From Actinocorallia populi (GTDB lineage Bacteria > Actinomycetota > Actinomycetes > Streptosporangiales > Streptosporangiaceae), in contig NZ_PVZV01000009.1 of assembly GCF_002995495.1 (NCBI RefSeq), forward strand, positions 106,888 through 170,887: DNA of 64,000 bases, in the 5' to 3' direction. A model generated the notes under the pieces. That model did no database searches. It saw only the letters and a list, made by a program, of their open reading frames with translations, and was not told where the DNA came from. Positions 58-61,701 of the stretch are shown here, piece by piece. Numbering within the stretch: position 1 is the stretch's first letter; the number at the start of each line of letters is the position of its first letter. The position numbers and the translations under genes were made by a program.

Positions 58-97
58 GCGTTCTTTCGTGGTTCGAGTGGCGGTCGTCCAAGCCTAG

Positions 98-4576: not shown

Positions 4577-4879
4577 CTCAGTCTAGAAAGCGGTGAGAGC
4601 AAAGGAGTACCACATGGTGGCGAGTTCAGTAGTCGCAGGTGGAGCATGCCCTCCTGTGGCGCAGGTCACATTTTAAGATTTAGGCTGGAGCTCTGCATGG
4701 ATGAGCTGGGATTTTGTTCTGAGCACCATGGCTGACCTGTTGATCTACAGTTATTGACCCGAGAAAAAATCGAGTGATAATTTCGCTGCGTACTTCCTGT
4801 ACCCGCTCCGGCTGAGGCCACCGATGCTTCCGACGGCTCTCTGCGGCCCCAGCCGGAGCAAAGCGAAGGGATTCTACAC

Positions 4880-5215: not shown

Positions 5216-5224
5216 GCAAGTCAC

Positions 5225-5905: not shown

Positions 5906-5906
5906 T

Positions 5907-7750: not shown

Positions 7751-7844
7751 ATATTTAGCAGGGGCGAGATGAAGCGCTTCGGGTCTGATGGAGACTGGTC
7801 TGCCCCGAGATATATGGAGTCGGGTTGCTGGACTTCATGCCACG

Positions 7845-8700: not shown

Positions 8701-8854
8701 AACCGCAGCTGGGCTCCGGGCGCGGGCGTTCCCGGCAGACGATGACCCGCATCCCCTGCGGTCAGCCGGACGAGTCGAGTAAGCCGGTGAACTCCGCGAC
8801 CCACGCACCCTCCCAGACTTGGCGGCCGGCGTCGTAGGCGGCCTGCCACTCGGC

Positions 8855-9202
8855 CTAGGGGAAGGCCCCAATCGCGTTCTGGAGGTCTTCGCCGAGCGTG
8901 AACCCGACCGAGTAATCCAGACGCCGGGCGGCCAACCACGCCAGGAACTCGTGCGTGCCGCTGCCGGAATCGGCGCGCACCAGCACCCGCCGCCTGCGCG
9001 CATTCGGCAGCTGGGCGAGCGCGAGTCTCGTGGTCTCGATGTGGTCGGCGGTGTTCGGCCCCGTCCTTCCTTCGCGCAGCAACACCGCCAGAGCCTCGCT
9101 CTCGCCTGCCGGGCCGTGGTCGGCGAACGCCGTCAACGGGTGAAAACCGAACGTCTTCTTCCAGGTCGGGGTGGCCTGCTCTTTCTCCGGGTGGACGATC
9201 AC
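8855..9202 (-). mobile_element. Truncated DDE transposase fragment, IS1380-family-like
   Basis: 115-aa ORF …KKTFGFHPLTAFADHGPAGESEALAVLLREGRTGPNTADHIE…RVLVRADSGSGTHEFLAWLAARRLDYSVGFTL… resembles the GFHPL…NTA…RADSG core of IS1380-type transposases, but is far shorter than a full enzyme. The family assignment is from memory. Confidence 0.5.
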
Positions 9203-9367
9203 GATCGTCGCGTCGGGTCGACCGGGACCAGATCGCCGTCGGTTCCGGAGTCAAGGACTATCTAATCTTTGGCCAAGACTTGCACTCTGCTCCCTCAAGG
9301 GATGGCTACTCGCCGGGCGTGATCTTCAAAGCTTGACTTTGATTCGCCCCAAGATCGACAAAAAGGA

Positions 9368-9440
9368 GTACCCCCAACGGGATTCGAACCCGTGCTACCG
9401 CCTTGAAAGGGCGGCGTCCTAGGCCACTAGACGATGAGGG
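9368..9440 (-). tRNA. tRNA-Glu (anticodon TTC)
   Basis: The reverse complement reads GCCCTCATCGTCTAGTGGCCTAGGACGCCGCCCTTTCAAGGCGGTAGCACGGGTTCGAATCCCGTTGGGGGTA. It folds as a cloverleaf, with anticodon loop CTTTCAA and T-loop GGTTCGAATCC. Confidence 0.9.
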
Positions 9441-9504
9441 CGCATGAGTGTGCTCAAGACCAGCATAGGGGACGGGGGCCGGAGACGTGTAATCGGTTTG
9501 GGGG

Positions 9505-22540: not shown

Positions 22541-22641
22541 GTACCACCTCCGGGTCTTCGCTACCTCTGATGCCCGGAGAGGGGTGAAAGTGCGATTGGT
22601 CCTATTGAAAACCTTTGTCGGGAACAGCACGTCCTACGAGT

Positions 22642-30415: not shown

Positions 30416-31015
30416 GTGAACGAGTTCCTGGACATCGTGCTCGCCCCGCCGACCGTGGTCTTCACCGTGCTGCTGGTGCTGGTCGTCGGTTACTGGGTGC
30501 TGACCATCCTGGGACTGGACCTGCTGGAGACCGACGTCGACCTGCTCGGCGCGATCGGCCTGCGCGGCCTCCCCTCGTCCGTCGTCATCTCGCTGTTCGT
30601 GGCGTTCACCTGGTTCCTCTGCCTGACCGGCTACGCGTTCCTGGACGAACTTCCCTGGGACGGCGGCCCGCTGGACCTGCTGGTCGCGCCCGTCGCGCTG
30701 ACCGGCGGCTGGCTGGCCACCCGGCTGCTGGTCAACCCGCTGCGGTACCTGCTGCCGGAGCCCAAGGTGCCCTCGCGGGACGACTTCATCGGCCGCATGT
30801 GCGTGATCCGGACGGGCACCGTCACCGCCCACTTCGGCCAGGCCGAGGTGCACTCCGAGGACGGCTCCTCGGCGCTGCTGCAGGTGCGCAAGCCCGGTGA
30901 CGAGGAGCTGACCGCAGGCGACACCGCGCTGATCTTCGAATACGACGCGGAGGGCGAGTTCTTCTGGGTGATGCCCTACGACGCCGCCCTCGACCCCCAC
31001 AAGAAGGGCCTCTGA
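30416..31015 (+). CDS. YqiJ/NfeD-like membrane protein (TM region + C-terminal OB-fold)
   Basis: 199 aa with N-terminal TM helices and a C-terminal beta-rich soluble domain. It is immediately followed (2-nt gap) by a flotillin gene, as in the yqiJK and NfeD-SPFH pairs. Confidence 0.65.
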   Translation: MNEFLDIVLAPPTVVFTVLLVLVVGYWVLTILGLDLLETDVDLLGAIGLRGLPSSVVISLFVAFTWFLCLTGYAFLDELPWDGGPLDLLVAPVALTGGWLATRLLVNPLRYLLPEPKVPSRDDFIGRMCVIRTGTVTAHFGQAEVHSEDGSSALLQVRKPGDEELTAGDTALIFEYDAEGEFFWVMPYDAALDPHKKGL

Positions 31016-31016
31016 G

Positions 31017-32984
31017 TTGGAAACCGTGTCCATCGGCCTGTTGATCCTGGTAGGCGTCGGCCTGCTGGTCCTCATCGGCGTTCTCTTCGTCATCAGCCGG
31101 CTCTTCCGCAAGGTGGAACAGGGCAAGGCCCTGATCATCTCGAAGGTGAAGAAGGTCGACGTGACCTTCACCGGGGCGGTCGTGCTGCCGGTCCTCCACA
31201 AGGCCGAGTTCATGGACATCTCGGTGAAGACCATCGAGATCGCGCGGACCGGGCGTGAAGGGCTGATCTGCCAGGACAACATCCGCGCCGACATCCGCAT
31301 CACGTTCTTCGTCCGGGTGAACAAGACCGTCGAGGACGTCGTGAAGGTCGCCCAGGCGATCGGCACCACGCGCGCCTCGTCCCAGGACACCCTGCAGGAG
31401 CTGTTCAACGCCAAGTTCTCCGAGGCGCTGAAGACCGTCGGCAAGCAGCTCGACTTCGTCGACCTCTACACCAAGCGCAACGAGTTCCGCGACCAGATCA
31501 TCGAGGTCATCGGCACCGACCTCAACGGCTACAGCCTCGAGGACGCGGCGATCGACTACCTGGAGCAGACCCCGGTCGGCCAGCTCGACAGCCGCAACAT
31601 CCTGGACGCCCAGGGCATCCGGAAGATCACCGAGCTCACCGCGATCGAGCACGTGCGCACCAACGAGTTCCAGCGCAGCGAGGAGAAGGAGATCACCCGG
31701 CAGGACGTCGACGCCCGGGAGGCGATCCTGGAGCTGGAGCGCCGCCAGGCCGACGCCGAGATCCGCCAGAAGCGCGAGATCGAGACCGTGCGGGCGCGCG
31801 AGGAGGCCGAGACCGCGCGGGTCGTGGCCGAGGAGCGGCTGCGGGCGCAGGCCGCGGAGCTGCGCACCGAGGAACAGCTGGGCATCCAGGAGGAGAACAA
31901 GGCGCGGGAGATCGGCGTCGCCGAGCTCAACAAGCGCCGGGTGATGGCCATCGAGGCCGAGCGCATCGAGAAGGACCGCCAGCTCGAGGTGATCGCCCGC
32001 GACCGGGCCACCGAACTGTCCAAGATCGCCAAGGACAAGGAGCTCGAGGCCGAGAAGCGCGACATCGCCGAGGTCGTCCGCGAGCGCGTCGCGGTCGAGA
32101 AGACCGTGGTCGAGCAGGAGGAGAACATCAAGCGCCTCCAGGTCGTGGAGGAGGCCGAGCGCAACCGCCAGGCCGTCATCATCGCCGCGGAGGCCGAGGC
32201 CCAGGAGAACCTGGTCAAGGACATCAAGGCGGCCGAGGCCGCCGAGCAGGCGGCCGGGTTCCGGGCCCGCGAGGAGCTGATCCTCGCCGAGGCGCGCCAG
32301 CAGGCCGCCGACCTCGACGCCCGCGCCATGATCCGGCTCGCCGAGGGCCAGCAGGCCGAGGCCGCCGCGGCGGGCCTGGCCGAGGTCCAGGTCCGCGAGC
32401 GCGACGCCGAGGCGATCGAGAAGCAGGGCCGCGCCGAGGCCGTCATCCTGCGGGAGAAGGCGCTGGCCGAGGCCGAGGCGCTGGAGAAGCAGGGCCGCGC
32501 GGAGGCCGTCGCCGAGCGGGAGAAGGGCCTGGCGCTGGCCGAGGCGACCGAGCAGCTGGGTCGCGCCGAGGCGATCGCCGACCGCGAGAAGGCGATGGCA
32601 GGCGCGGACGCGCTGCGCGAGAAGCTCAAGGGCGAGGCCGAGGGCCTCACCGAGAAGGCCGCCGCGATGGCGGCCCTCACCGAGGCCAGCCGCGGCCACG
32701 AGGAGTTCCGCCTCACCCTGGAGGCCGAGCGCGACCTGCGCCTGGCCGGCCTGGAGATGCAGCGCGACATCGCGCAGGCGCAGGCGAGCGTCGTCTCCAA
32801 GGGCCTGGAGAACGCCGACATCAACATCGTCGGCGGCGACAGCGTCTTCTTCGACAAGCTCGTCGGCTCGATCGCGCTCGGCAAGAGCGTGGACGCCGTC
32901 GTCGAGAACGCCCCGCTCACCGGAGAGCTGGTCGCCGGCCTCGTCGGCGACGTCCTCGGACGGGTCAACGGGACGGCCAAGTGA
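31017..32984 (+). CDS. Flotillin-family (SPFH/band-7) protein with long charged coiled-coil tail
   Basis: N-terminal TM helix, SPFH domain (…ISKVKKVDVTFTGAVVLPVLHKAEFMDISVKTIEIAR…) and an extended E/A/R-rich coiled-coil with AEA repeats, 655 aa in total. Confidence 0.85.
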   Translation: METVSIGLLILVGVGLLVLIGVLFVISRLFRKVEQGKALIISKVKKVDVTFTGAVVLPVLHKAEFMDISVKTIEIARTGREGLICQDNIRADIRITFFVRVNKTVEDVVKVAQAIGTTRASSQDTLQELFNAKFSEALKTVGKQLDFVDLYTKRNEFRDQIIEVIGTDLNGYSLEDAAIDYLEQTPVGQLDSRNILDAQGIRKITELTAIEHVRTNEFQRSEEKEITRQDVDAREAILELERRQADAEIRQKREIETVRAREEAETARVVAEERLRAQAAELRTEEQLGIQEENKAREIGVAELNKRRVMAIEAERIEKDRQLEVIARDRATELSKIAKDKELEAEKRDIAEVVRERVAVEKTVVEQEENIKRLQVVEEAERNRQAVIIAAEAEAQENLVKDIKAAEAAEQAAGFRAREELILAEARQQAADLDARAMIRLAEGQQAEAAAAGLAEVQVRERDAEAIEKQGRAEAVILREKALAEAEALEKQGRAEAVAEREKGLALAEATEQLGRAEAIADREKAMAGADALREKLKGEAEGLTEKAAAMAALTEASRGHEEFRLTLEAERDLRLAGLEMQRDIAQAQASVVSKGLENADINIVGGDSVFFDKLVGSIALGKSVDAVVENAPLTGELVAGLVGDVLGRVNGTAK

Positions 32985-35900
32985 GCGAGCTGGACGCCGG
33001 GACCTACGAGGTACTGAGGTCCCGGCTGACGGCGCAGGCCGCCGAGCTCAAGGAGCGCGCCGAGGCGCTGAACGCCTCCCGGCTGGAGGTGTTCGGCGGC
33101 TCGGAGCTCCGCCTCGTCGGCACCGAGCGGATCCGGACGGCCAACAACTGCGTGCCGCGCGACGCCGTCGCGTTCGGCGGGCTGATGCTGTTCGGCTACA
33201 ACGTCTTCATCGGCATGAAGCCGGAGACGACGGTCTCGGACGTGCTCTCGACGCACCGGTTCGTCCATGACGGGGACACCTTCAGCTTCACCGAGGAGAA
33301 GGCCCCGTTCCTGGAGGACCCCGCCTTCGTCAAGGACTTCGGGGACCTCTACCGGTACTACCGGGACACCCGCCTCATGCAGTTGCGGGTCGTGGACGGC
33401 AAGCTCCTGGCGGTCTTCCAGACCGGCACCGACCAGCGCGTCCTGCGCTGGTCGGTCGACGGGAGCTACCTGGACAACCGGGGGGAGCGGGACCACGTGT
33501 TCCCCCCGCCGTTCGACTTCACCTGGACCGAGACGACCCGCGCCGACCACGTGCTCGGCGAGCACCCGCACGTGTCGATCGAGGGGGAGGTGTTCGTCGA
33601 GACCGTCGGCGGCGACCTCACCATCAAGGTCGAGGACAACACGGCGACGGGCGAGGGCATCTACAGCGAGCCCGTCGACGAGCCGCTGCAGTCGCTGGCG
33701 GACGCCGACATCTCCTACGCCCGCGTCGGGGGGCTGATCCTGCTGCGGATCCGCCCCTACAACGAGACGGCCGTGCGGTACCTGGTCTTCAACACGCGGA
33801 CCAAAGAAGTGCTGCGCCTGGACGGCATCGGGCAGGCATGTCGGCGGCTGCCGGAGGACCACGGGATCATCTTCCCCGGCGGCTACTACCTGGAGACGGG
33901 CGCCGCCAAGACCTTCGACACCGTCACCGACGACCTGGAGTACGAGCGGGTCATCCGTTCGGGCAACGGCGAGGACGTGCTGTACGTCTTCCACGCCCGC
34001 GCGGAGGGCCGCTGGCTGCTGCTGCCGTACAACGTGATCCGCAAGGAGGTCGCGACGCCGCTCGTCGGACACGGTTACTCGCTGTTCGACGACGGCACGC
34101 TCATCATCTTCCGTGCGGACTCGGACGAGCCCACCCGCTCGCACCCGATGCAGGTGTGGCAGACGCCGTTCAAGTCCGATGAGAGCGCTCCGGCGGGCAC
34201 CGGGCCACTGGAGAAGATCGGCAACGCGGACCTGGTGCGCGGCATCTCGGACTGCCTTTCGGTGTCCCGCATGGTCGGGGAGATGGCACCGTCCGTGCCG
34301 GTCTTCGAGGCGCTGATAGCGGCTTGCAGCAGGACTTTCGACCACTACCACTGGCTGGGCGAGCACGGCTTGGCCGAGTCCCTGGCGGCCGTGCGGGACA
34401 CCGCGGGGCAGGTTCTGGAGGAGTTCGAGTCCGTCCAGGTCCTCACCACTCAGGCGACGGAGGCGGTCGAGAAGGCCGCCACCGAGATCACCTCGCTGGT
34501 GCGCCGGGTGCGCGGCGAGATGCCCGCCTCTGCGGACGAGTGGGTACGGCAGTTGGCCGCCCTCCGTGCTCAGCAGGGGCACCTGGTGACGCTGCGGGAG
34601 ATGCGTTACGCCGACCTCGAACGGCTCGACGGGCTGGCCGAGGGACTCGCCGAGGACATCGAGGCGGCCGCGCAGCGGGCTGTGGCCTTCCTGGCGCGCC
34701 CGGATGCCTTCGACGGCTACCGCACGACGGTCGAGGCGCTGGTCGAGGAAGCCGCAGGCATCCGCAAGGTGGCCGAGGCCGAGCCGGTGAGGGACAAGCT
34801 CGCCGAGCAGACCGGGGCGCTGGAGACCGTCACCGAAATCGTCGGTTCACTCGACATCGGCGACGCGACCGTGCGCACGGGCATCCTCGCCCGGATCGGT
34901 GAGGTGCTGGGCGGGGTCAACAGAGCCCGCGCCACCCTGGACGGCCGCCGCCGCGAGCTGCTGTCGGCCGAAGGCAGAGCCGCGTTCGCCGCGGAGTTCG
35001 CGCTGCTGGGCCAGGCCATCACCGCCGCGCTGGCCGCAGCCGGCACGCCCGAGCAGTGCGATGAGCAGCTCGGCAAGCTTCTGCTCCAAGTGGAGTCTCT
35101 GGAGTCGCGTTTCACCGAGTTCGACGACTACCTGGCAGAACTGGAGGCCAAGCGCGAGGACGTCTACGAGGCGTTCTCCTCGCGCAAGCAGGCGCTCCTG
35201 GACGAGCGGACGCGCCGCGCGGACCGGCTCGTGGCGTCCGCCGACCGGATTCTGGGCGGTGTGACGCGGCGGGTGGCCGGTCTGTCGTCGCTGGACGAGG
35301 TCAACACCTACTTCGCGACCGATCCGATGGTCGTGAAGCTCCGTGCTACAGCCGAAGAGCTGCGTGAACTGGGCGACCAGATCCGTGCCGAGGAGCTGGA
35401 AGGGCGGATCAAGACCGCCCGCCAAGAGGCCGGACGGTCCCTGCGCGACCGGCTGGACCTCTTCGACGGCGACACCATCAAGCTGGGACGGCACAGATTC
35501 ATCGTCAACACCCAGCCTGCGGAACTCACCCTCGTCCCGTTCGAGGACCGCCTGGCGTTCACCGTCACGGGCACCGACTACCGCAGTCCCGTCCTGGACC
35601 CGGAATTCGAGTCAACGCGCCCGTATTGGTCGCAGTCGCTCATCTCGGAGAGTCGGGAGGTGTACCGGGCGGAGTACCTGGCGGCCATCCTTCTGGACGA
35701 GGTACGCACGACTGACGGTCTGCTGGAGATCGTGCAGAAGGCGGCTGCCGAGCGTTACGACGAGGGTTACGAGCGCGGCGTGCACGACCACGACGCCGCG
35801 GTGATCCTGGAGGTGCTCATCCGGCTGCGGGATGGCGCGGGGCTGCTGCGATACCCGTCTTCCGCACGGTCAGCGGCGCAGATCTTCTGGACGCACGGCA

Positions 35901-37741
35901 CGGACGATCAGAGCCGTAACGCCTGGCGCACACGGGCGGCGTCGCTCTCGCGTGCCCGGGAGCTCTTCGGCACTCCTCCGGCTCTCACCGCGTTGTCCTC
36001 TGAGCTCGCGGAGGCGATCAAAGCCTTCGGGCACGGTGAAGACGCGGCGCTCGCAGGGGAGTATCTCGTCGCGGAACTGGCCTCGCCGGGCTTCATCACG
36101 AGCAAGTCGGCCCGGGATCTGGTGGAAGGCTTCCACCGTGCGCTGGGCTCGCGCCGCAGCGGTTACGACCAGGATCTGCGTGGTCTGAGCGGGCTGCGTG
36201 AGCGGACCCAGCTCGTTTCGGCCTGGCTCGCCGCCTACGCGGCCGCCCAAGGACTGCCGGACGACGACCTTCCCGAGGCCGTGGCGCTGGAACTGTGCCC
36301 GTCTTTGGACCGCCAGGATTCCTCGGCGTCCATCAAGGGCGTCGCGGAAGGACTGCTCGGCACCCACGCGCGCATCACGGACCGCCGGATGGACATCCGT
36401 CTGGACGAGCTGCTGGCACGTGTCGGGAAGTTCCACAAGGAGCGCGTGCCGGGCTTCCGCGCCTACCAGAAGCGGCGTAACGAACTCGTCGAGAAGGAGC
36501 GCGCACGGCTGCGTCTCCACGAGTTCCAGCCCAAGGTGATGTCGGCGTTCGTCCGCAACAGGCTGCTGGACGAGGTCTACCTCCCGTTGATCGGGGACAA
36601 CCTGGCCAAGCAGCTGGGAGCGGCCGGGGACGCCAAGCGCACCGACCAGATGGGCATGCTGCTGCTCATCTCCCCGCCCGGTTACGGCAAGACGACGCTC
36701 ATGGAGTACGTCGCCTCCCGGCTCGGCCTGGTGTTCGTGAAGGTCAACGGTCCCTCGCTGGGCCACCACGTGACCTCGCTCGACCCGGCCGAGGCGCCCG
36801 ACGCGACGTCGCGCCAGGAGGTCGAAAAGATCAACTTCGCGCTGGAGATGGGCGGCAACGTCCTGCTCTACCTGGACGACATCCAGCACACGTCGCCGGA
36901 ACTGCTGCAGAAGTTCATCTCCCTGTGCGACGCGCAGCGCCGGATCGAGGGCGTCTGGAACGGGCTTACCAAGACCTACGACATGCGCGGCAAGCGCTTC
37001 GCGATCTGCATGGCGGGCAACCCGTACACCGAGTCCGGGCAGCGTTTCCGCATCCCGGACATGCTCGCCAACCGGGCGGACGTGTGGAACCTCGGCGACG
37101 TGCTGTCCGGCAGGGAGGCGCTGTTCTCGCTCAGCTACATCGAGAACTCCCTCACCTCCAACCCGGTCCTGGCACCGCTGTCGACCCGGGACAGGAAGGA
37201 CGTGGAGCTGCTCGTCCGCATGGCCTCGGGTGACGAGGACGTGCGGCCGGACCAGCTCTCGCACCCGTACGCGCGGGTGGAGCTCGACCAGATGCTGTCC
37301 GTCCTGCGCAAGCTGCTGCGCATCCAGCGGGTCGTCCTGGCCAACAACCAGGCCTACATCGCCTCGGCCGCGCAGTCCGACGGGAGCCGCACCGAGCCGC
37401 CGTTCCTGCTCCAGGGCAGCTACCGCAACATGAACAAGCTGGCCGAGAAGGTCGTCCCGGTAATGAACGACGTCGAACTCGAAGCGGTCATCGACGACCA
37501 CTACCTGGGCGAGGCGCAGACGCTCACCAGCGGCGCGGAGGCCAACCTGCTGAAGCTCGCCGAGCTGCGCGGCACGCTCACCGACGAGCAGAAGGAGCGC
37601 TGGGGCGACGTCAAGGCCGCCTACCTGCGCACGCTGGCCCTCGGCGGAGCGGAGGACGACCCGGTCACCCGCGCGGTGGGCGCGCTGGGCCTGCTGGCCG
37701 ACCGGCTGGCCGAGATTCAGCGCACCTTGGGCTCCCGGTGA
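32981..37741 (+). CDS. Giant (1586 aa) multidomain protein: N-terminal beta-rich domain, long coiled-coil, C-terminal MoxR/AAA_5-like ATPase
   Basis: Its GTG start overlaps the flotillin stop (GTGA). The C-terminal region carries Walker A SPPGYGKTTL, Walker B VLLYLDDIQH and an MAGNP sensor-like motif. The 450-900 region is coiled-coil. Proteins of this type may carry generic automated names such as DNA repair ATPase; this is from memory and is not evidence of function. Confidence 0.75.
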   Translation: MSELDAGTYEVLRSRLTAQAAELKERAEALNASRLEVFGGSELRLVGTERIRTANNCVPRDAVAFGGLMLFGYNVFIGMKPETTVSDVLSTHRFVHDGDTFSFTEEKAPFLEDPAFVKDFGDLYRYYRDTRLMQLRVVDGKLLAVFQTGTDQRVLRWSVDGSYLDNRGERDHVFPPPFDFTWTETTRADHVLGEHPHVSIEGEVFVETVGGDLTIKVEDNTATGEGIYSEPVDEPLQSLADADISYARVGGLILLRIRPYNETAVRYLVFNTRTKEVLRLDGIGQACRRLPEDHGIIFPGGYYLETGAAKTFDTVTDDLEYERVIRSGNGEDVLYVFHARAEGRWLLLPYNVIRKEVATPLVGHGYSLFDDGTLIIFRADSDEPTRSHPMQVWQTPFKSDESAPAGTGPLEKIGNADLVRGISDCLSVSRMVGEMAPSVPVFEALIAACSRTFDHYHWLGEHGLAESLAAVRDTAGQVLEEFESVQVLTTQATEAVEKAATEITSLVRRVRGEMPASADEWVRQLAALRAQQGHLVTLREMRYADLERLDGLAEGLAEDIEAAAQRAVAFLARPDAFDGYRTTVEALVEEAAGIRKVAEAEPVRDKLAEQTGALETVTEIVGSLDIGDATVRTGILARIGEVLGGVNRARATLDGRRRELLSAEGRAAFAAEFALLGQAITAALAAAGTPEQCDEQLGKLLLQVESLESRFTEFDDYLAELEAKREDVYEAFSSRKQALLDERTRRADRLVASADRILGGVTRRVAGLSSLDEVNTYFATDPMVVKLRATAEELRELGDQIRAEELEGRIKTARQEAGRSLRDRLDLFDGDTIKLGRHRFIVNTQPAELTLVPFEDRLAFTVTGTDYRSPVLDPEFESTRPYWSQSLISESREVYRAEYLAAILLDEVRTTDGLLEIVQKAAAERYDEGYERGVHDHDAAVILEVLIRLRDGAGLLRYPSSARSAAQIFWTHGTDDQSRNAWRTRAASLSRARELFGTPPALTALSSELAEAIKAFGHGEDAALAGEYLVAELASPGFITSKSARDLVEGFHRALGSRRSGYDQDLRGLSGLRERTQLVSAWLAAYAAAQGLPDDDLPEAVALELCPSLDRQDSSASIKGVAEGLLGTHARITDRRMDIRLDELLARVGKFHKERVPGFRAYQKRRNELVEKERARLRLHEFQPKVMSAFVRNRLLDEVYLPLIGDNLAKQLGAAGDAKRTDQMGMLLLISPPGYGKTTLMEYVASRLGLVFVKVNGPSLGHHVTSLDPAEAPDATSRQEVEKINFALEMGGNVLLYLDDIQHTSPELLQKFISLCDAQRRIEGVWNGLTKTYDMRGKRFAICMAGNPYTESGQRFRIPDMLANRADVWNLGDVLSGREALFSLSYIENSLTSNPVLAPLSTRDRKDVELLVRMASGDEDVRPDQLSHPYARVELDQMLSVLRKLLRIQRVVLANNQAYIASAAQSDGSRTEPPFLLQGSYRNMNKLAEKVVPVMNDVELEAVIDDHYLGEAQTLTSGAEANLLKLAELRGTLTDEQKERWGDVKAAYLRTLALGGAEDDPVTRAVGALGLLADRLAEIQRTLGSR

Positions 37742-45096: not shown

Positions 45097-45360
45097 CCAC
45101 CCGGAGCGCGCCGCTTCGCGCTCGGGGAGGGCCGCCGCCGCGCTCGGCGGCCGTTCGGGGTGGGAAGCGCCGCTTCTTCCTCAAGGGGTGTTGCCACCGT
45201 GTCCGGTGGCCGTTCCGGGTCGCCGCGTTCGGCGGCCGTCGGGCGGGAAGCGCCGTTTCGCGCTCAAGGAGGGTCGCTGCCGCGTTCGGCGGCCGCTCGG
45301 GGGTTTCATTCTCGGGAGGGCTGTTGCCGCGCTCGGCGGTTCCGGGGGTGGGGTAAACCG
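45051..45360. repeat. Degenerate tandem repeats (about 50-80 bp, 4-5 copies) seeded in the 3' end of arfB
   Basis: Units share CTC(A/G)AGG(A/G)GGgccgc…gcTCGGCGGcCg.TCGGGGgtGG.AAGCGCCG(c/t)TTC. The first copy is the coding 3' end of arfB (…AAGCGCCGCTCCACCCTCAAAGAGGGCCGCCGCCGCGAC…). Confidence 0.6.
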
Positions 45361-47716: not shown

Positions 47717-47755
47717 CGCCCGTTCAGCCCCCAGAACCTCCCGAACAGCCCGACC

Positions 47756-48045
47756 CCGGCCTACCGCGTGGGTGAAGCCGGGGTCCGGGGTGCGCCGTCT
47801 TTCGAGGCGCGGCTTTCTGCTGTTGTTCTCAGGCCCGAGGGCCTCTCTGAATGGCCGGACACCGGCCTATCGCGTGGGTGAAGCCGGGGTCCGGGGTGCG
47901 CCGTCTTTCGAGGCGCGGCTTTCTGCTGTTGTTCTCAGATCCGGGGAGTCCCTGAGCGGTCCGGCATCGGCTCGCCGTGCAGTGAAACCGGTGACCGGGC
48001 GGGATGCGCTGTCTACGAGGCGGGCTTCTCGACCGATCCTCGCCG
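47756..48045. repeat. Intergenic tandem repeat, two near-identical 77-bp copies with 106-bp period plus a degenerate third copy
   Basis: CCGGCCTA(C/T)CGCGTGGGTGAAGCCGGGGTCCGGGGTGCGCCGTCTTTCGAGGCGCGGCTTTCTGCTGTTGTTCTCAG occurs at 47756-47832 and 47862-47938. A diverged third unit lies at about 47990-48045. Confidence 0.7.
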
Positions 48046-48142: not shown

Positions 48143-48511
48143 TCAGCCGGTCTTCTCGCGCGGGGCGAAGTGAGGGTTCTCGATGACGCCGAAGACGGTG
48201 CCCTGGGGAGTGAGGACGGTGGCGACGCGAATGCCGCCGCCGACGTCGCGTACCGGGCCGTGCTCGGTGGCGCCGTGCTCCAGGAGGCGGGCCAGGGCGG
48301 TGCCGATGTCGGGGACGCCCCAGTAGGTGATGGGGGTGTCGCCGCCGAGCAGGTGGGGCGGCTGCAGGGCGAGCTCGTATCCGCCGACGTCGAAACCGAC
48401 GTAGTAGGGCTCCTCGAAGTAGGGGGCGAAACCGAGGAGGCGGGTGTACCACTCCGTCGCCGCCGCGAGGTCGGCGGCGGGGTAGACGATCGTGCGGAGG
48501 CCGAGGAGCAC
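48143..48511 (-). CDS. VOC (glyoxalase-fold) family protein, start codon uncertain
   Basis: …LLGLRTIVYPAADLAAATEWYTRLLGFAPYFEEPYYVGFDVGGYELAL… is the conserved small actinobacterial VOC pattern. There is no in-frame ATG; the GTG at 48511 is chosen. An out-of-frame ATG (MSFSFKTVDTPAWE…) sits just upstream. Confidence 0.55.
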   Translation of the reverse strand: MLLGLRTIVYPAADLAAATEWYTRLLGFAPYFEEPYYVGFDVGGYELALQPPHLLGGDTPITYWGVPDIGTALARLLEHGATEHGPVRDVGGGIRVATVLTPQGTVFGVIENPHFAPREKTG

Positions 48512-48822
48512 CGTGAGTTCCTTCGTCGTGCGGGTGAAGTGCGCCCAGTTTCCCAGGCCGGCGTATCCACCGTCTTGAACGAAAAAGACATGGTGAAGCC
48601 GCTGGGCGCGAGAAGCGCGATGAGGCCGGGTGGCGAAGCGGACGAGCGCGCGGGGATGCGGGGCGTAAGGCGAGGTGGCGCGCGTGTGGGGTGGTGCGAG
48701 TAAGGGGGTGGGTGCGCGGTGATGAGGCGGACGGGTGTGCGAGAAGGCGAGGTGGCGCACGTGTGGGTGCTGTGAGAAGCACGGTGGGGCGGGTGGAGCG
48801 GTGGTTTCGGTGGGTGCATGAC

Positions 48823-49972: not shown

Positions 49973-50185
49973 GGTGCCTAAGGGGTCGGCCCCGTGACCG
50001 GGGGGCTGCTGATGGTTCAGAAGGGGCAGGGGTGGACCCCTGATTGCGGGACGTCAGACCCGACTCTGGTCCGGTCCGGCCTGATCGCGCAACCGGAACG
50101 ACGGTTCTCGCGAGAATTAGGCAGGTGTCCGTTCACGTCGATCCCGGCCGAGACGCCGCCGCCTCAAAGAGACAGAATACGGTTC

Positions 50186-50707
50186 ATGACGTTCTTGGGC
50201 GCACTTGGCGCATACCAGCCCGAAGTTCACCCCACCGCGTGGATCGCCCCGGGCGCCGTGGTGGTCGGCAAGGTCACCCTCGGCCGCGACTCCAGCGTCT
50301 GGTACGGCTCGGTCCTGCGGGCCGACGAGGAGGAGGTGATCGTCGGAGACGGGTGCAACATCCAGGACCTGTCGTGCATCCACGCCGACCCGGGCCTGCC
50401 CACCGTCCTGGAGGACGGGGTCACGCTCGGGCACAAGGCGATGGTCCACGGCGCGCACGTCGAGACCGGCTCGCTCATCGGCATCGGCGCGATCGTGCTC
50501 AACGGCGCGCGGATCGGGGCGCGCACCCTGGTGGCCGCCGGTGCCCTGGTCACCCCCGGCAAGCAGTTCCCCTCCGGGGTGCTGGTCGCCGGCGCGCCCG
50601 CGAAGATCAAGCGGGAGCTGAACGACGACGACCTGGCCGGTCTCGAACTCACCGCCGCCGCCTACGTGCAGAAGGCCAAGCAGCACGCCCAGGCCGAGTG
50701 GAGATGA
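50186..50707 (+). CDS. Gamma-class carbonic anhydrase family protein (hexapeptide-repeat, YrdA/PaaY-like)
   Basis: Left-handed beta-helix repeats (…VVVGKVTLGRDSSVWYGSVLRAD…IGIGAIVLNGARIGARTLVAAGALV…). Confidence 0.8.
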   Translation: MTFLGALGAYQPEVHPTAWIAPGAVVVGKVTLGRDSSVWYGSVLRADEEEVIVGDGCNIQDLSCIHADPGLPTVLEDGVTLGHKAMVHGAHVETGSLIGIGAIVLNGARIGARTLVAAGALVTPGKQFPSGVLVAGAPAKIKRELNDDDLAGLELTAAAYVQKAKQHAQAEWR

Positions 50708-50742: not shown

Positions 50743-50945
50743 TAACGCACGCCCGACGGTGCGCTGCCGGCGGCCGAACGCACGTCGGCGTGCTGAACGG
50801 TCCACGCGAAACGCACGCCTGACGGCAGGCTGCCGGTGGCCGAACGCGTGCTGGCGCGTGCCGGTCGGTTCACCGCAGAACGCGTCTGGCGGCGTGCTGC
50901 CGGTGGCCGAACGCGCGTTGGCGCGCGCTGAACGGTCCACTGCAG
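50743..50945. repeat. Three tandem 67-69-bp repeats immediately upstream of the giant CbxX-type ATPase gene
   Basis: Units AACGCaCGcc.GaCGG…CTGCCGGtGGCCGAACGCgcGt.GGCGcGtGCtGaaCGGtcCAC.GCAG at 50743-50809, 50810-50878 and 50879-50945. Each unit has an internal inverted repeat (for example gcacgcccgacg…cgtcggcgtgc). Confidence 0.7.
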
Positions 50946-50969
50946 AACCGGGTCAATTACCATGACCGG

Positions 50970-53900
50970 GTGGCATGGGGACCGAGTGACTCGCGGCAGG
51001 AAGACCTCTTCGACGCCGCCGAGCGCGAGATCAAGGCGGTGGTCTCCGCGAGCTGGTGGCCCACCGCACGGGCCGAGCAGCGCGAACACGCCGTCGCCGG
51101 ACGTGTCGTCGAGCTGCCCGACGCCACCCAGTGGCTCTTCGGCGCCTGGGCGCGCTGGTACCGCAAGCACCCGGGCGACAACCAGTGGTACCTGTGCCCG
51201 CCGCCGTACGCCACGTCCGTCCGGCGGTCGGGCAAGACCGCGGCGGCCGTGTCCGGGCTGCCCCCGCACGTGATCCCGCTCGGGCCCGACTTCGAGGTCA
51301 CCGCGCCCGCCGCGCTGCCGTTCTTCGGCGCCGACCTGGCGCCGCTGACCGCTCGGGTCCGCGCCACCGTCGAGTCGGCGGCGTCGCTGCCGCCCGGCGA
51401 CTTCCCCCGGCCGGAGAACCCGCCGCGCTGGCTGGCCGACTTCTCCCCGGACGCGCCCAACACGGTGGCGGCCTGCTGGGGCGTGATGCTCTGGTGCGCC
51501 TCGGCCCCCGTCTTCGACGCGCAGCGGGACGCCGACCTGCTCGCCCTCTGGGAGCCCTACCGCGCCGCCGCGCTGCCCCGCATCGAGGGGCCGCGCTGGC
51601 TGACCCCGCCGACGCTGGAGGATCTCGTCTCCCTGTACGCCGAGCGGCTGCGCGCGCACAACGTCCAGTCCGCGGTGGTGATCCTGCGGACCATGTGGGC
51701 GACGGCCTCCGCGCTGCGCGACGAGCCCCGGTTCACCGCCCGCGCCGACGCGCTGCTGGCCATCCTCAACGTCACGCTCGCCGACCCGCAGCAGGACTAC
51801 GGCGCGCTGCCGCACGGCGACGCGGCCGTCGCCCAGCTGTGGGTCACCCGCTGCCCGCCGAACCTCAGTCCGGGCCTGCGCGCCGAGAGCTCGCCGGGCG
51901 ACGGGTTCCGGCACCTCTTCTACGACCTGGCCCGCTGCCTGGCGCCGGCGGCGGGGGAGCCGGGCGGGCCCACGTTCGTGGAGCCCCGGCTGATCGCCGC
52001 CGCGCTGCTCGCCGCCGACCTGGCGATCGTCCGCCAGGACCTGGTCGCCGAGGTCACCCGCTGGCTGGACCCGGAGATCCGGTACACCGTCCAGGCGATG
52101 ATCGCCCAGCCGGGCCACCCGCTGCGCCGCCGCTTCTGGCCGATCGACCAGCGGCTGCCGCCGCAGCTGCGCGACGGGGCCTCGGGCAACGGCGAGGAAC
52201 TGCTGGCCGTCCTGTACGCGGTGGCGCTGGGCTGGTGCCGGCTCGGCGGCGGCATCCCCGCCCGGCCGCGCGGCTTCCCCGCGCCGGTCGCGGTGCTGGC
52301 CGAGCTGGTCGGGCTGGAGCGGGCCACCGCCACCACCCCGGCCGCCCCGCCGCCCCCGCCCCAGCAGTGGGGGGCGCCGCCTCAGCAGGGCGCGCCCCAG
52401 CAGGGCGCGCCGTTCCAGCCGGGCGCGTCCCAGCAGGGCGCGCCGCTTCAGCCGGGTATGCCCCAGCCGGGGGCGCCCCAGCAGGGCGAACCACCTCAGC
52501 CCGGCATGCCCCAGCCGGGCACGCCGTTCCAGCAGGGCGCTCCCCAGCCGGGCGCGTCCCAGCAGGGCGCACCGCAGCAGTGGGGGCCGCCCCAGCAGCC
52601 GCACGTCCCGCCGGGCGCCCAGGGCGGGCAGCAGCCCGCTCAGGGGCAGCCGTGGGGCACCCAGCCGCACCAGCGCACCGCCCGTGCCGAGTTCGGCCCG
52701 GACGGGCAGCTCATCCTGCCCGGCCAGGACGCCCGGCCGGCCGAGCCGGGAGCACAGGGCGAGCAGGCGCAGTTCGGCCAGCCGGGCGCGCCGTACCAGA
52801 CGGGCTCCCGGCGTCCGGCGGCCCAGCGGGGCCCCACCGCCGACGAGCTGGCCCAGCAGGCGGGCAAGGCGTTCGGCAAGGCCTGGGAGCGCGCCCGCAA
52901 GCTCGGCGGACGGCTGCTGGGCGGCGGGCCGCAGGCCGACGTGCACTCCACCGGGCCGCTGGGCTTCGACCAGCCGGACGGCCCCCGCCAGCCGCCGATG
53001 CCCTCACCCGCCGGAGCCGACCCCGGCCAGGGCGGGCAGCAGGCGCCCGAGCACGGCACCCGTGTCATGTCCGGGACGATGGTCGGCAACTTCCTGGACT
53101 ACGCGCCGGTGCCGTCCCGGCCCGTCGACGACATCGCCCCGCCCGCGCGGTCGCCCGGCGAGGTGCCGACGGTGACCCGGCGCGGCGTCACGTTCGTGTA
53201 CGGGGCCGAGGACGACGCCGCGGCCTTCCTCGACGCCCTGCCGGTCCCCGGCATCGCCCTGGACGCCACCCAGGTCGCCGCGCGGCCCGGTCCGAACCCC
53301 CGGGCGCCCCAGGCCCCGGCCACGATGCTGGACCAGAGCGCCGCGGCCCTGCTGGAGGCCTCAGGTGCCCCGGCGTCGTTCGACCCGCGCGCCACGATGC
53401 TCGATCCGGGCACGGGAGGCGCCGTCGAGGGCCCGACGCAACCCGACCAGGGCCAGGGCTTCGACCCGCGCGCCACGATGCTCGACCCGTCGGGCGGCCG
53501 CCCGGTGGACTCCAACGCCACGCGGCTCGACCAGGGCGCCGGGCAGCCGGCCGGCCAGGACGCCGCCCGCCCGGTGGATCCGGACGCCACGCTGCTGGAC
53601 CAGGGCGCGGGGCGTCCGGTGGACTCCAACGCCACGCTGCTCGATCAGGGCGCGGGGCGTCCGGTGGACCCGAACGCCACGCTGCTGGACCAGGGCGGCG
53701 CCCGTCCCGCCGACCCGTACGCCACGATGCTCGACGGCGGCGCGGCGGCCGGTCCCGCCGCGGGCCCGGCGGCGGTCTCGGTGCTGCTGGTGGGCGCCCC
53801 GCACACCGGCCAGCGCCGGTTCGCCCGGATGATCGCGGGGATCGTCGGCGACGGGCAGCTGCGCGTCATCGACGCCGAGGAGCTGCGCGGCCTGGCGCTG

Positions 53901-55196
53901 GAGCGGCTGGCGACGCTGTTCGACGAGGGCGGCCAGGGCGCGCCCACCCTGCTGCTGGAGCGGCTGGACGCGGCGGTCCTGGACGCCGCCGACCCGCAGG
54001 TCTTCCTGCGGACGCTGCGCACGGTGCGGGCCAGGGCGCGCGTTCCGATGGTCACCACCTGCGACCCGCGCTCGTTCCGGCGCTTCGCCCAGGAGCACCC
54101 GGAGCTGGAGCGCGTCTTCCGGGTCTTCCACCTGCCGGAGCTGCGCGACGTCGAGGAGCGCGTCACCCTGCTGCGGGTGCTGGCCGACGAGCGGCGCGCC
54201 TCGCTGGACACCGTCGCCTGGGACGCGGCGCGCGAGGACCTCACCCGGCTGCGCGGCCCCGGCGACCTGACCGGCGCCCGGCTCGTCGAGGCCTACCTGG
54301 ACCGGGCCTACCAGCGCGCGCTGGGCCGGGGCGGCGGCGCCAGGGACAGGGTCGTGCTCCAGTCCGCGGACTTCGCGGGCGTGCCCGAGACGATCGAGCC
54401 CGCGCTGCGGCCCGCCGGGGACGTGGACGGCTATCTGGACACCCTGCACCAGATGATCGGCCTGGTGGAGGTCAAGGCCGAGGTGGACCGGCTGGCCGCC
54501 GAGGCCGACGCACCGGTCAACCTGGTCTTCGAGGGGCCGCCGGGAACGGGCAAGGCCACCGTCGCCGGGATCGTCGGCGGCATCTTCGGCGCGCTGGGGG
54601 TGCTGCCGTCCGGGCACCTCATCCAGTGCCGTCCCGAGCACCTGCTGGGCCGCGACGGGCTGGAGACGGAGCTGCGCACCGCCGCGATGGTGCAGCAGGC
54701 CGAGGGCGGCCTGCTCCTGGTGCAGCAGGCCGAGGCGCTCACCCCCGAGGCGGTCGCGGAGCTGTTCCGCGGCTTCCGCGACCACCCGTACCAGCTGGTG
54801 CTGGCCGGCCGCGACCTCGGCGGCTTCCTGCGCGCCAACCCCGACATCGAGGCGACCTTCCTGAAGCTGGACTTCACCCCGCCGACCGACAGGGAGCTGG
54901 TGCAGCTGTTCGTCAAGCTCGCGGAGGCCAAGCTGTACGTGGTGGAGGAGGAGCTGCGGGTCGAGCTGATGACCCGGATCGCGGGGCTGCGGGAGAACGA
55001 GAACTTCGCCTACGGGCGGACGGTCCACCAGTGGTTCGACGAGACGGTGGCGCGCCAGGCCAGGCGGCTGGCCGGCCTGGTCGGCGCGGACGCCATGACG
55101 GCGGCCCGGCTGACCACCCGCGACCTGCCGGAGTCCAACCTGGAGCGCGTGCTGGGCGACCTCAACCAGACGCTGAGGGGCGGCCCGGAGCACTGA
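50970..55196 (+). CDS. Giant (1408 aa) protein: novel N-terminal domain, Pro/Gln-rich linker, 18-aa tandem repeats, two CbxX/CfxQ-type AAA modules (EccA/SpoVK-like)
   Basis: The second AAA module has a canonical Walker A (VFEGPPGTGKATVAGIV) and CbxX-like context (…LHQMIGLVEVKAEVDRL…). The first module is degenerate (VLLVGAPHTGQRRFARMIAGIV). Residues about 450-620 are PQQGAP low complexity, and about 800-930 hold the (A/N)ATMLDQGAGRPVD repeats. A GTG start is used. The overlapping alternate-frame ORF 51056..55264 is rejected. Confidence 0.75.
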   Translation: MAWGPSDSRQEDLFDAAEREIKAVVSASWWPTARAEQREHAVAGRVVELPDATQWLFGAWARWYRKHPGDNQWYLCPPPYATSVRRSGKTAAAVSGLPPHVIPLGPDFEVTAPAALPFFGADLAPLTARVRATVESAASLPPGDFPRPENPPRWLADFSPDAPNTVAACWGVMLWCASAPVFDAQRDADLLALWEPYRAAALPRIEGPRWLTPPTLEDLVSLYAERLRAHNVQSAVVILRTMWATASALRDEPRFTARADALLAILNVTLADPQQDYGALPHGDAAVAQLWVTRCPPNLSPGLRAESSPGDGFRHLFYDLARCLAPAAGEPGGPTFVEPRLIAAALLAADLAIVRQDLVAEVTRWLDPEIRYTVQAMIAQPGHPLRRRFWPIDQRLPPQLRDGASGNGEELLAVLYAVALGWCRLGGGIPARPRGFPAPVAVLAELVGLERATATTPAAPPPPPQQWGAPPQQGAPQQGAPFQPGASQQGAPLQPGMPQPGAPQQGEPPQPGMPQPGTPFQQGAPQPGASQQGAPQQWGPPQQPHVPPGAQGGQQPAQGQPWGTQPHQRTARAEFGPDGQLILPGQDARPAEPGAQGEQAQFGQPGAPYQTGSRRPAAQRGPTADELAQQAGKAFGKAWERARKLGGRLLGGGPQADVHSTGPLGFDQPDGPRQPPMPSPAGADPGQGGQQAPEHGTRVMSGTMVGNFLDYAPVPSRPVDDIAPPARSPGEVPTVTRRGVTFVYGAEDDAAAFLDALPVPGIALDATQVAARPGPNPRAPQAPATMLDQSAAALLEASGAPASFDPRATMLDPGTGGAVEGPTQPDQGQGFDPRATMLDPSGGRPVDSNATRLDQGAGQPAGQDAARPVDPDATLLDQGAGRPVDSNATLLDQGAGRPVDPNATLLDQGGARPADPYATMLDGGAAAGPAAGPAAVSVLLVGAPHTGQRRFARMIAGIVGDGQLRVIDAEELRGLALERLATLFDEGGQGAPTLLLERLDAAVLDAADPQVFLRTLRTVRARARVPMVTTCDPRSFRRFAQEHPELERVFRVFHLPELRDVEERVTLLRVLADERRASLDTVAWDAAREDLTRLRGPGDLTGARLVEAYLDRAYQRALGRGGGARDRVVLQSADFAGVPETIEPALRPAGDVDGYLDTLHQMIGLVEVKAEVDRLAAEADAPVNLVFEGPPGTGKATVAGIVGGIFGALGVLPSGHLIQCRPEHLLGRDGLETELRTAAMVQQAEGGLLLVQQAEALTPEAVAELFRGFRDHPYQLVLAGRDLGGFLRANPDIEATFLKLDFTPPTDRELVQLFVKLAEAKLYVVEEELRVELMTRIAGLRENENFAYGRTVHQWFDETVARQARRLAGLVGADAMTAARLTTRDLPESNLERVLGDLNQTLRGGPEH

Positions 55197-55347: not shown

Positions 55348-55512
55348 GTGCGCCTTTCGGAACTCGATCGACGTCTGCACGACGACGTGGCACTCGGTGA
55401 GATCGAACTCTACGCCGAGCTGCTGAGCGCGGTCGCGACCGCGGAGCGCTCGCTCACCGCGGCGGAGATCGACATCGTCCTCGGAGTGAGCCCTGAGCCG
55501 GTCTATGACTGA
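55348..55512 (+). CDS. Possible small protein (54 aa), not in the ORF track
   Basis: GTG start preceded by GGAGG at ideal spacing (aacGGAGGttgacgcGTG). Reads VRLSELDRRLHDDVALGEIELYAELLSAVATAERSLTAAEIDIVLGVSPEPVYD*. Codon usage is GC3-rich like the neighbouring genes. Confidence 0.35.
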   Translation: MRLSELDRRLHDDVALGEIELYAELLSAVATAERSLTAAEIDIVLGVSPEPVYD

Positions 55513-61501: not shown

Positions 61502-61585
61502 GGGGTGTTCCTCCTGATCAGTGCGGTGTACCCCGTGTCAGGTCAGGGAGGTGGGGACACCGTCTGCATCCGAAGGTAGAAAGCC

Positions 61586-61632
61586 CAGGTGAACGGCTCG
61601 GAGCGGTCCAGGTGAACGGGCGGTGAACACCG
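61586..61632 (-). promoter_or_regulatory. PHO-box-like direct repeats (GTTCACC units) upstream of pstS
   Basis: On the minus strand there are GTTCACC units at 61628-61622, 61617-61611 and 61594-61588, with 11-nt and about 22-nt spacing, 87-130 nt upstream of the pstS start. A further unit sits at 61683-61677. Confidence 0.5.
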
Positions 61633-61701
61633 CCGGTCGGACCACCGAAGAACACGTCGACAAGGCGTGGCCATCAGGTGAACGAGGTCACATCCGGCCC
61701 C

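Follow-up and report, generated by a model that had tools for sequence, protein, structure and literature searches.

The large gene of Actinocorallia populi and its surroundings

The stretch of DNA examined here, referred to throughout as the window, is a 64 kb segment of the genome of Actinocorallia populi, a member of the family Thermomonosporaceae (contig NZ_PVZV01000009.1, positions 106,888 to 170,887). At 50970-55196 of its forward strand lies an open reading frame (ORF) that begins with GTG and encodes a protein of 1408 amino acids (aa). The G+C content at third codon positions (GC3) is 0.97 in a window of 69% G+C, which marks the ORF as a real coding sequence, and its product is 100% identical to an A. 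populi ‘hypothetical protein’. No paper on this protein family was found in the literature. The gene follows another on the same strand, whose product resembles gamma carbonic anhydrase (gamma-CA), and the space between the two contains three head-to-tail copies of a repeat of about 67 bp. Features of the locus are collected in Table 1.

We consider it fairly probable that two conclusions hold jointly. The repeat array would be a species-specific duplication resembling a variable-number tandem repeat (VNTR), and the protein, a member of a family restricted to the order Streptosporangiales, would carry a core N-terminal domain (N-domain) on a non-hydrolysing AAA+ scaffold.

Table 1. Features at and around the large gene, in order of position in the window.
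Feature	Position	Strand	Description
DivIVA-domain coiled-coil protein, 356 aa	48902-49972	-	Pfam DivIVA, E 8.5e-10; weak NCBIfam matches to Wag31 and Scy
Gamma-CA-like hexapeptide-repeat protein	49994-50707	+	Pfam Hexapep; NCBIfam gamma carbonic anhydrase, 173 bits vs 250-bit cut-off
GC-rich hairpins directly 3′ of the upstream gene's stop codon	50708-50775	+	CCGGCCGG/CCGGCCGG plus a 17-nt stem running into unit 1
Repeat unit 1	50744-50809	+	66 bp; contains GGTCCAC
Repeat unit 2	50810-50878	+	69 bp; contains GGTTCAC; single GTTCACCGC, resembling PHO-box core
Repeat unit 3	50879-50945	+	67 bp; contains GGTCCAC; 3′ part GGTCCACTGCAGAAC is the ancestral single-copy sequence common to relatives (alignment)
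Putative promoter	50934-50963	+	Weak -35-like GGTCCA (50934-50939), 18-nt spacer, -10-like TACCAT (50958-50963)
N-domain	50970-52334	+	aa 1-455; small beta subdomain (aa 46-91), then helical domain
Pro/Gln/Gly-rich low-complexity spacer	52335-53039	+	aa 456-690; variable, gap-rich in family alignment
Short conserved block	53052-53234	+	aa 695-755, HGTRVMSGTMVGNFLDYAP...TRRGVTFVYG; family conservation, tblastn matches in orthologous loci
Short linear motif, eight copies	53307-53744	+	(F/V)DxxAT(M/L/R)LD(Q/P)G (regular expression); repeat-number-variable region aa 780-925
Module 1	53775-54449	+	aa 936-1160; pseudo-AAA+ with lid
Module 2	54450-55154	+	aa 1161-1395; AAA+ with AAA_lid_6; GPPGTGKA, LLLVQQA, NPDIE
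Conserved 54-aa ORF, directly downstream of the large gene	55348-55512	+	No family match

The upstream repeats as a probable local triplication

Tandem Repeats Finder places the array at 50744-50948 (period 67, 3.0 copies, 77% matches, score 224), and a second repeat search recovers the identical three copies. The units share an invariant 19-nt core, GCTGCCGGYGGCCGAACGC, which occurs exactly three times where 0.41 occurrences would be expected by chance in the 64 kb window. Apart from one chance-like match, no further copy of this core exists in the window with three or fewer mismatches. An earlier note on this DNA, made from the sequence alone, had described a triple head-to-tail array of about 68-bp units, each with a GGT(C/T)CAC element and an internal inverted repeat of about 11 bp, that ends 25 bp before the GTG. 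The array and its GGT(C/T)CAC element are real, and inverted repeats are indeed present in the units. However, these are short, imperfect stems of 5-8 bp whose sequence varies from unit to unit (GCACG/CGTGC, ACGCG/CGCGT and GCGCG/CGCGC), and the distance from the array to the GTG is 21-24 bp. The sole long inverted repeat is the 17-nt stem in which the left flank of the array pairs with unit 1. In one relative (L002), the stop codon of the upstream gene is likewise trailed by a hairpin.

The orthologous loci of five relatives were compared with that of A. populi, namely those of A. libanotica (89% protein identity), a Logan contig (80%), Actinocorallia sp. B10E7 (77%), A. longicatena (55%) and Thermomonospora curvata (48%). 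The array is absent from the orthologous intergenic space in all four Actinocorallia relatives and in T. curvata. Between the hexapeptide gene and the large gene there are 54-65 bp in A. libanotica, B10E7 and A. longicatena (as measured between annotated gene ends) and 25 bp in the Logan contig; the corresponding gap in T. curvata is 203 bp long and carries no array. Alignment with the relatives reveals an insertion of approximately 200 bp that is confined to A. populi; the final 35 bp or so of the array region, GGTCCACTGCAGAACCGGGTCAATTACCATG, can be aligned with DNA that the relatives have in one copy.

Two other intergenic minisatellites are located less than 6 kb from the 67-bp array, one at 45136-45302 (83 bp x 2.0, 78% matches) and one at 47738-48027 (106 bp x 2.7, 81% matches). 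The intergenic spaces that match both are short in Actinocorallia sp. B10E7, a strain that carries its own, different array elsewhere (26 bp x 6.6). A common origin of the three local minisatellites was rejected, as the best local alignments between their units are no better than those obtained with shuffled sequences. The 106-bp minisatellite, together with a glyoxalase-family gene (48143-48760, reverse strand), is inserted between a response-regulator gene and the DivIVA-like gene, and the latter two are adjacent in strain B10E7.

A search for the 67-bp unit, which the earlier note had envisaged on a genome-wide scale, was run over the 64 kb window and 88 kb of the relatives' loci, and it returned no other copy. 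When a wider collection was scanned with the 19-nt core, at least 119 single chance matches in unrelated taxa were present among the matches listed.

We read the array as a lineage-specific, VNTR-like local triplication of promoter-proximal intergenic DNA and not as a conserved operator. Because unrelated minisatellites are found nearby and B10E7 has an array of its own, tandem duplication between genes seems to be commonplace in these genomes, and the 67-bp array is one instance of it. The triplication would have copied the GC-rich hairpin sequence along with the weakly -35-like GGTCCA, and only the final repeat copy would adjoin the conserved -10-like TACCAT. An effect of the array on expression, if there is any, would be a recent and species-specific side effect.

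A conserved start region downstream of the array

The TACCAT sequence ends 6 nt ahead of the GTG, and each of the eight loci inspected, which come from both the Thermomonosporaceae and the Streptosporangiaceae, shares the arrangement TA(C/G/A)CAT-N6-7-GTG. In these loci, the GTG after TAnCAT opens the conserved N-terminus of the protein, which reads (M)A/VWGP... or ...VRQWD. No Shine-Dalgarno sequence is apparent, and a promoter scan based on an E. coli-type consensus found nothing. In actinobacteria, the -10 element TANNNT lies 7-12 bp upstream of the transcription start site and leaderless mRNAs are abundant (Cortes et al., PMC3898074). Because the conserved TAnCAT-N6-7-GTG arrangement fits both of these properties, the mRNA of the large gene is probably leaderless and would start at the GTG at 50970. 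At the position of the GGTCCA of unit 3, 18 nt upstream of the -10-like element, the relatives read GGACCA or GGTCCG. The GGT(C/T)CAC element is therefore probably an ancestral promoter-proximal sequence that was copied with each duplication.

The earlier note had interpreted the array as a multi-site operator. Under this explanation, the array would be an operator or enhancer-like element in which a factor controls the large gene by binding either the palindromes or the GGTYCAC elements, which recur at intervals of about six helical turns. The array is indeed positioned at -25 to -230 from the putative start, and each unit offers short palindromes and a GGT(C/T)CAC element to which a factor might bind. 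In addition, GTTCACCGC of unit 2 is identical to the PHO-box core of the pstS promoter 10 kb away, and a two-component system is encoded 3 kb upstream. However, none of the five relatives has the array at its orthologous promoter, so that it is not part of the family's regulation. The presence of unrelated arrays in two intergenic regions nearby suggests a mutational process of a general kind, and the palindromes differ in sequence between units. We therefore regard an operator as unlikely.

The pstS promoter (61584-61680, reverse strand) contains a textbook PHO-box cluster, GTTCACCGCCC GTTCACCTGGA ... GTTCACCTGGG, plus one box upstream, and pitH/phoU-like and pstSCAB genes come directly after the large gene. 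PhoP was considered as the factor acting on the array and was rejected. PhoP sites need at least two adjacent 11-nt direct repeats, whereas the array elements are single and 67 bp apart. Furthermore, two of the three elements read GTCCAC rather than GTTCAC, which leaves only one good core. The PHO-box pattern GKTCAYYYRSG has no match in the array; three or four GTTCACC units are present in the positive control, the pstS promoter.

A second alternative places the function of the array in RNA. The repeats would form hairpins in a co-transcript of the gamma-CA-like gene and the large gene, resembling those of repetitive extragenic palindromic (REP) sequences and bacterial interspersed mosaic elements (BIMEs) or those of terminators, and would stabilize the upstream message or attenuate read-through. 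Consistent with this possibility, the predicted RNA folding of the array region is strong (-160 kcal/mol, z = -4 relative to shuffled sequences), and the hairpins begin straight after the upstream stop codon. Moreover, the two genes are 25-65 bp apart on the same strand in the Actinocorallia relatives, so co-transcription is plausible. In contrast, any GC-rich tandem repeat with CG-rich palindromes folds well. A scan with E. coli-type consensus sequences scored no terminator-like site and no T-tract terminator after the upstream gene, and Rfam gave no match either around the array at permissive thresholds or in the whole window at gathering thresholds. The sequence is also species-specific and without another copy in the DNA searched. 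Functional hairpins of this kind are thus rather unlikely.

Domain organization of the large protein

An alignment of 102 full-length members was used to assess conservation and motif states across the protein family. The most conserved region spans aa ~25-445, where the mean frequency of the most common residue is 0.8-0.9. This N-domain of about 450 aa has no Pfam or NCBIfam match. An AlphaFold2 model (predicted local distance difference test score, pLDDT, of 77) contains the small beta subdomain and the helical domain listed in Table 1. A Foldseek comparison of the model with solved PDB folds gave a best E-value of 0.28, and the list of hits is headed by non-significant solenoids resembling tetratricopeptide repeats (TPRs). 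With no match to a Pfam or NCBIfam family or to a solved PDB fold, the N-domain is a new domain, as the earlier note had proposed for about the first 430 aa.

The next part of the protein is the Pro/Gln-rich spacer of low complexity, which had been described previously as PQQGAP-type; Tandem Repeats Finder detects DNA periods of 15, 33 and 48 within it (52370-52598). Beyond a short conserved block, the short linear motif occurs eight times where 0.26 copies would be expected from shuffling. The last four copies are tandem repeats of 15 aa (Tandem Repeats Finder period 45 bp), and the repeat array noted earlier in this part of the protein is therefore present but has a period of 15 rather than 18 aa. 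Between five and eight copies of the motif are found in Actinocorallia proteins, and one or two, just before module 1, in those of other genera.

Two AAA+ modules, both degenerate in A. populi

The earlier note had placed two CbxX/CfxQ-type AAA modules, the first of them degenerate, after the repeat array of the protein. Profile searches against Pfam and NCBIfam support an assignment of module 2 to the AAA+ proteins. The AAA_lid_6 family (PF17866) scores 27.4 bits against a cut-off of 24.3 and is the sole Pfam family above its cut-off, and no TPR family was detected with Pfam at E <= 1. Among solved structures, module 2 matches CbbX best (3SYL, E 2e-14, aa 1137-1386) and EccA1 second-best (E 3e-10). 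In contrast, the NCBIfam matches are partial and reach none of the relevant equivalog cut-offs, with 83.7 bits vs 422.95 for SpoVK (TIGR02881), 52 vs 466.65 for EccA (TIGR03922) and 50.6 vs 459.25 for CbbX (TIGR02880). The resemblance to EccA and SpoVK that had been recognized from motifs thus holds at the level of clade membership for module 2, but the protein is not an EccA, SpoVK or CbbX orthologue.

Module 1 has no direct match to solved structures. However, an hhalign comparison of the two modules aligns 177 colinear columns (E 4.8e-5, probability 68%). When aa 930-1408 were modelled with AlphaFold2 (pLDDT 75.5), two five-strand alpha/beta units were obtained, each followed by a helical lid, and Foldseek matches this model to p97, Rix7, Msm0858, ClpA/ClpC and NSF with E-values of about 1e-12 over approximately 550 columns. 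Because of the CbbX match of module 2, the alignment between the modules and the double-ring matches of the predicted structure, the assignment of a type II tandem AAA+ architecture, with two AAA+ folds in one chain, stands for the modelled protein.

The P-loop of module 1 has the form GxPHTGQRR (GAPHTGQRR in A. populi) and lacks the Lys, and its ‘Walker B’ sequence is LLERLD. Because these degenerate motifs are conserved throughout the 102-member alignment, module 1 is best described from its sequence as an old pseudo-ATPase.

In A. populi, the degeneration noted earlier for the first module extends to the second. The family majority carries GPPGTGKT, LLIQEA and NPxFR in module 2, and T. curvata likewise has GKT, Q-E and the Arg; a canonical Walker B DE pair is found in only one of the 102 members. 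In Actinocorallia proteins, the arginine finger is missing, the Q at Walker B precedes Q, K, R or D, and GKA stands in place of GKT in all but A. longicatena. The A. populi module has lost all three features, namely the Thr of Walker A, both acidic residues of Walker B and the arginine finger. Characterized sequence signatures of the SpoVK-EccA-CbbX clade are a sensor-1 GY, an Asn four residues before the first arginine finger and a sensor-2 Arg (PMC10659427). Of these, the sensor-1 GY is absent from module 2, where ‘LAGY’ of CbbX corresponds to ‘LAGR’ in A. populi and to ‘VC[ST][SG]’ in the family consensus. Within NPxxR, the Asn (N1290) is kept, and the Arg, present in 79/102 members, is replaced by E1294 in A. 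populi. Most family members also retain the sensor-2 Arg (Glu in Actinoallomurus), with ‘GRTVHQ’ of A. populi aligning with ‘ARSIRN’ of CbbX. Because module 2 is 90-93% identical among close Actinocorallia species, which equals the conservation of the N-domain, its sequence is still under purifying selection in this genus.

Distribution of the family and its conserved neighbours

Homologues of the large protein were seen only in the Thermomonosporaceae and Streptosporangiaceae. A search of 1.84 billion representative proteins with an N-domain profile returned 61 clusters, and all of those that could be named belong to one of these two families. The protein family is restricted to the order Streptosporangiales. 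In the Streptosporangiaceae, the N-domain is found as a stand-alone protein of 450-480 aa that is 35-39% identical over the full N-domain length and is encoded in Planobispora, Planomonospora, Microtetraspora, Sphaerisporangium, Nonomuraea and Acrocarpospora. The gene order at these loci comprises a divergent DivIVA/Scy-like gene, a gamma-CA-like hexapeptide gene, the N-domain gene and a 53-aa ORF.

Equivalent neighbours surround the large gene. A DivIVA-like gene is located upstream on the opposite strand in most orthologous loci with enough flanking sequence, in both families, and the position of the gamma-CA-like gene directly upstream on the same strand is conserved. The true start of the latter gene in A. 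populi probably lies later than annotated in Table 1, with products of 173-187 aa in relatives. The 54-aa ORF is 84-94% identical within Actinocorallia and 53-57% identical to the Streptosporangiaceae copies, and is thus more conserved between families than the N-domain. It is present in orthologous loci and absent from paralogous ones, and its product may be a partner protein. When 43 further metagenomic loci were surveyed with tblastn, the block was found in nearly all orthologous loci with enough flank.

The family also includes paralogues, of which five consist of the N-domain and module 1 only (P0155, P0158, L150, L157 and L158) and one has both modules (L146). Their genomic contexts are unrelated and heterogeneous (EamA transporter, HATPase_c_2 kinase-like, GHL10 and one RHS toxin-type gene), and their neighbourhoods provide no clear functional lead. 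An example from Actinocorallia sp. API 0066 (L127, 7454-14935) is a 1111-aa paralogue with the N-domain and pseudo-AAA module 1 only. It follows a 144-aa HATPase_c_2 kinase-like gene, and a 1190-aa RHS/YD-shell and PT-HINT toxin-type gene begins 27 bp downstream. In L157 and L158, too, the paralogue is flanked by HATPase_c_2 and GHL10 genes.

A possible scaffold function

The distribution of the domains suggests a mechanism in which the N-domain would be the ancestral working part. In the Thermomonosporaceae, it is fused, via a long disordered Pro/Gln-rich tether with TxxD-type motifs, to a tandem AAA+ cassette whose hydrolytic machinery, judging by its motifs, was never canonical and has been lost in Actinocorallia. 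The cassette would form a nucleotide-binding or purely structural ring, probably hexameric, and thereby confer multivalency on the N-domain and the linear motifs; nucleotide binding would act at most as a switch. In A. populi, the cassette would accordingly be neither an ATP-driven unfoldase nor a secretion chaperone. A scaffold is proposed because the catalytic residues have been lost while module 2 remains under selection.

Alternatively, the protein could resemble EccA, SpoVK or CbbX in being an active AAA+ chaperone with a dedicated task, in which the N-domain recruits one client and the ring remodels it with ATP. Module 2 falls within the SpoVK-EccA-CbbX clade, whose characterized members are narrow chaperones with variable substrate-recruiting N-domains (PMC10659427), and most members of the family retain the GKT, the Walker B Glu and the arginine finger. 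However, A. populi and its genus have replaced the Walker A Thr (except in A. longicatena), both Walker B acidic positions and the arginine finger, and a canonical DE pair is found in just one of the 102 family members. Moreover, the N-domain works without any AAA module in the Streptosporangiaceae, and paralogues have lost module 2. An active chaperone is therefore unlikely.

The protein could also act as the EccA-type part of an ESX/type VII system whose other genes lie elsewhere in the genome. The match of module 2 to EccA1 favours this possibility, as does the location of the L127 paralogue just upstream of an RHS/YD-shell toxin-type gene. In contrast, the score against the EccA equivalog is a small fraction of its cut-off, and the TPR families expected of EccA are missing from the Pfam results; a Foldseek comparison with the EccA5 TPR gave a non-significant E-value of 1.4. 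No ESX-type Pfam family occurs among the approximately 30 neighbouring genes scanned, in agreement with the earlier note. The family is also confined to two families of one order, and ESX systems are far more widespread in Actinobacteria. An ESX role is thus very improbable.

Two further roles were rejected. A Rubisco or carboxysome function, prompted by the proximity of a CbbX-like module to a gamma-CA-like gene, was dismissed since the gamma-CA-like gene also flanks AAA-less homologues and the neighbouring genes scanned include none for Rubisco. A role in anti-phage defence was likewise dismissed, as the protein has no PADLOC match and its synteny is stable in the core genome.

The DivIVA-like neighbour and the TxxD motifs, which are possible phospho-Thr docking sites, may hint at a link of the proposed scaffold to DivIVA-type polarity or signalling, although conserved gene order within one order is weak evidence. 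It is conceivable, although we give this extension little weight, that the block of DivIVA-like, gamma-CA-like, N-domain and 53-aa ORF genes is a cell-biological module of the Streptosporangiales, for example in hyphal polarity or sporangium development. The N-domain of the Thermomonosporaceae would then be multimerized on a silent double AAA+ ring, and up to eight DxxAT(M/L)LD motifs on the tether would dock FHA-domain proteins or other partners through phospho-threonine (TxxD). If this were true, the block would be a pseudo-ATPase signalling or scaffolding hub without a characterized counterpart.

Several observations weigh against the combined explanation of a species-specific array and a non-hydrolysing scaffold. 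The array may have originated as a dispersed repeat, given that the repeat search covered the window and the relatives' loci. The retention of short palindromes via different sequences, together with the z-score of -4 for folding, could reflect selection on structure, and the array occupies about -25 to -230 of the putative start, where regulators normally bind. With respect to the protein, the loss of the Walker A Thr and the arginine finger is deduced from alignment, and proteins with Q-E at Walker B can still bind ATP and sometimes hydrolyse it. Finally, a gene order that is conserved within one order may be inherited rather than functional.

Other features of the window

A second very large AAA protein of 1586 aa is encoded at 30416-37741 (forward strand) and contains DUF3686 (‘ATPase involved in DNA repair’), DUF7902 and AAA domains. 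It is preceded by a gene for an SPFH/Band 7 protein, which includes a 66-bp coding repeat (32402-32593), and by a 199-aa ORF, and it has no PADLOC match. An 851-aa NACHT-domain protein (20075-22630, reverse strand) gives a weak PADLOC match to mad8 (E 5.5e-5). The first ~9 kb of the window (1-9441) have a G+C content of 57-65% as compared with about 70% elsewhere, and no ORF in this region shows the high GC3 of the genome. A tRNA gene (9369-9441, reverse strand) is located near the end of the low-G+C region, which is probably an integrated island.

Comparison with known systems

The array shares several properties with the minisatellites at VNTR loci of mycobacteria that are built from mycobacterial interspersed repetitive units (MIRUs). 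In both, units of 40-100 bp follow one another head to tail within a short space that separates genes of the same orientation, their presence varies between close relatives, and several arrays can occur in one region. However, MIRUs form a family whose related units are scattered over many loci, whereas the three A. populi arrays have mutually unrelated units. The array also carries a caution, as a striking repeat beside a start codon turned out to be a species-specific minisatellite once the nearest relatives were compared.

Among AAA+ proteins, the closest counterparts are CbbX (3SYL/3ZUH) and the remainder of the SpoVK-EccA-CbbX clade. The alignment of module 2 with CbbX extends across both the alpha/beta domain and the lid. 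The module keeps the Asn of NPxxR and the sensor-2 Arg and is preceded, as in other clade members, by a variable N-terminal region (PMC10659427). In contrast to these proteins, the A. populi protein has a pseudo-AAA module ahead of module 2, scores far below the equivalog cut-offs, lacks the sensor-1 GY and carries Q-Q at Walker B, where its family has Q-E. The approximately 30 window genes scanned offer no Rubisco, ESX or sporulation context. SpoVK itself belongs to sporulating Firmicutes and has a short beta3-alpha N-domain, whereas A. populi is an actinobacterium.

Type II AAA+ proteins with one inactive ring (p97/Cdc48, NSF, Msm0858 and ClpA/ClpC) are similar in that the predicted structure aligns over both modules and one copy is conserved and non-catalytic. 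These proteins differ from the A. populi protein in that identity is only 14-18%; both of its modules derive from a CbbX-like unit, both lack catalytic residues, and its hexamer is a prediction.

The stand-alone N-domain proteins, such as those of Planobispora rosea (P0140) and Sphaerisporangium siamense (P0144), which are annotated as ‘hypothetical protein’, have the same neighbours and a TAnCAT-N7-GTG start. Unlike the large protein, they end at about 450-480 aa and are without the spacer, the repeats and the AAA modules. The strong conservation of the N-domain implies that it must do something specific in filamentous actinomycetes. With its tandem cassette, in which one module is an ancient pseudo-module, the protein family brings a new architecture to the SpoVK/EccA/CbbX clade, which has been little studied. 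Together, the known forms make up a natural series in which the N-domain occurs by itself, joined to a single pseudo-AAA module, joined to a pair of modules, or joined to a pair that is losing its catalytic residues. This series is well suited to the question of which roles an AAA+ ring can take on after ATP hydrolysis has stopped.

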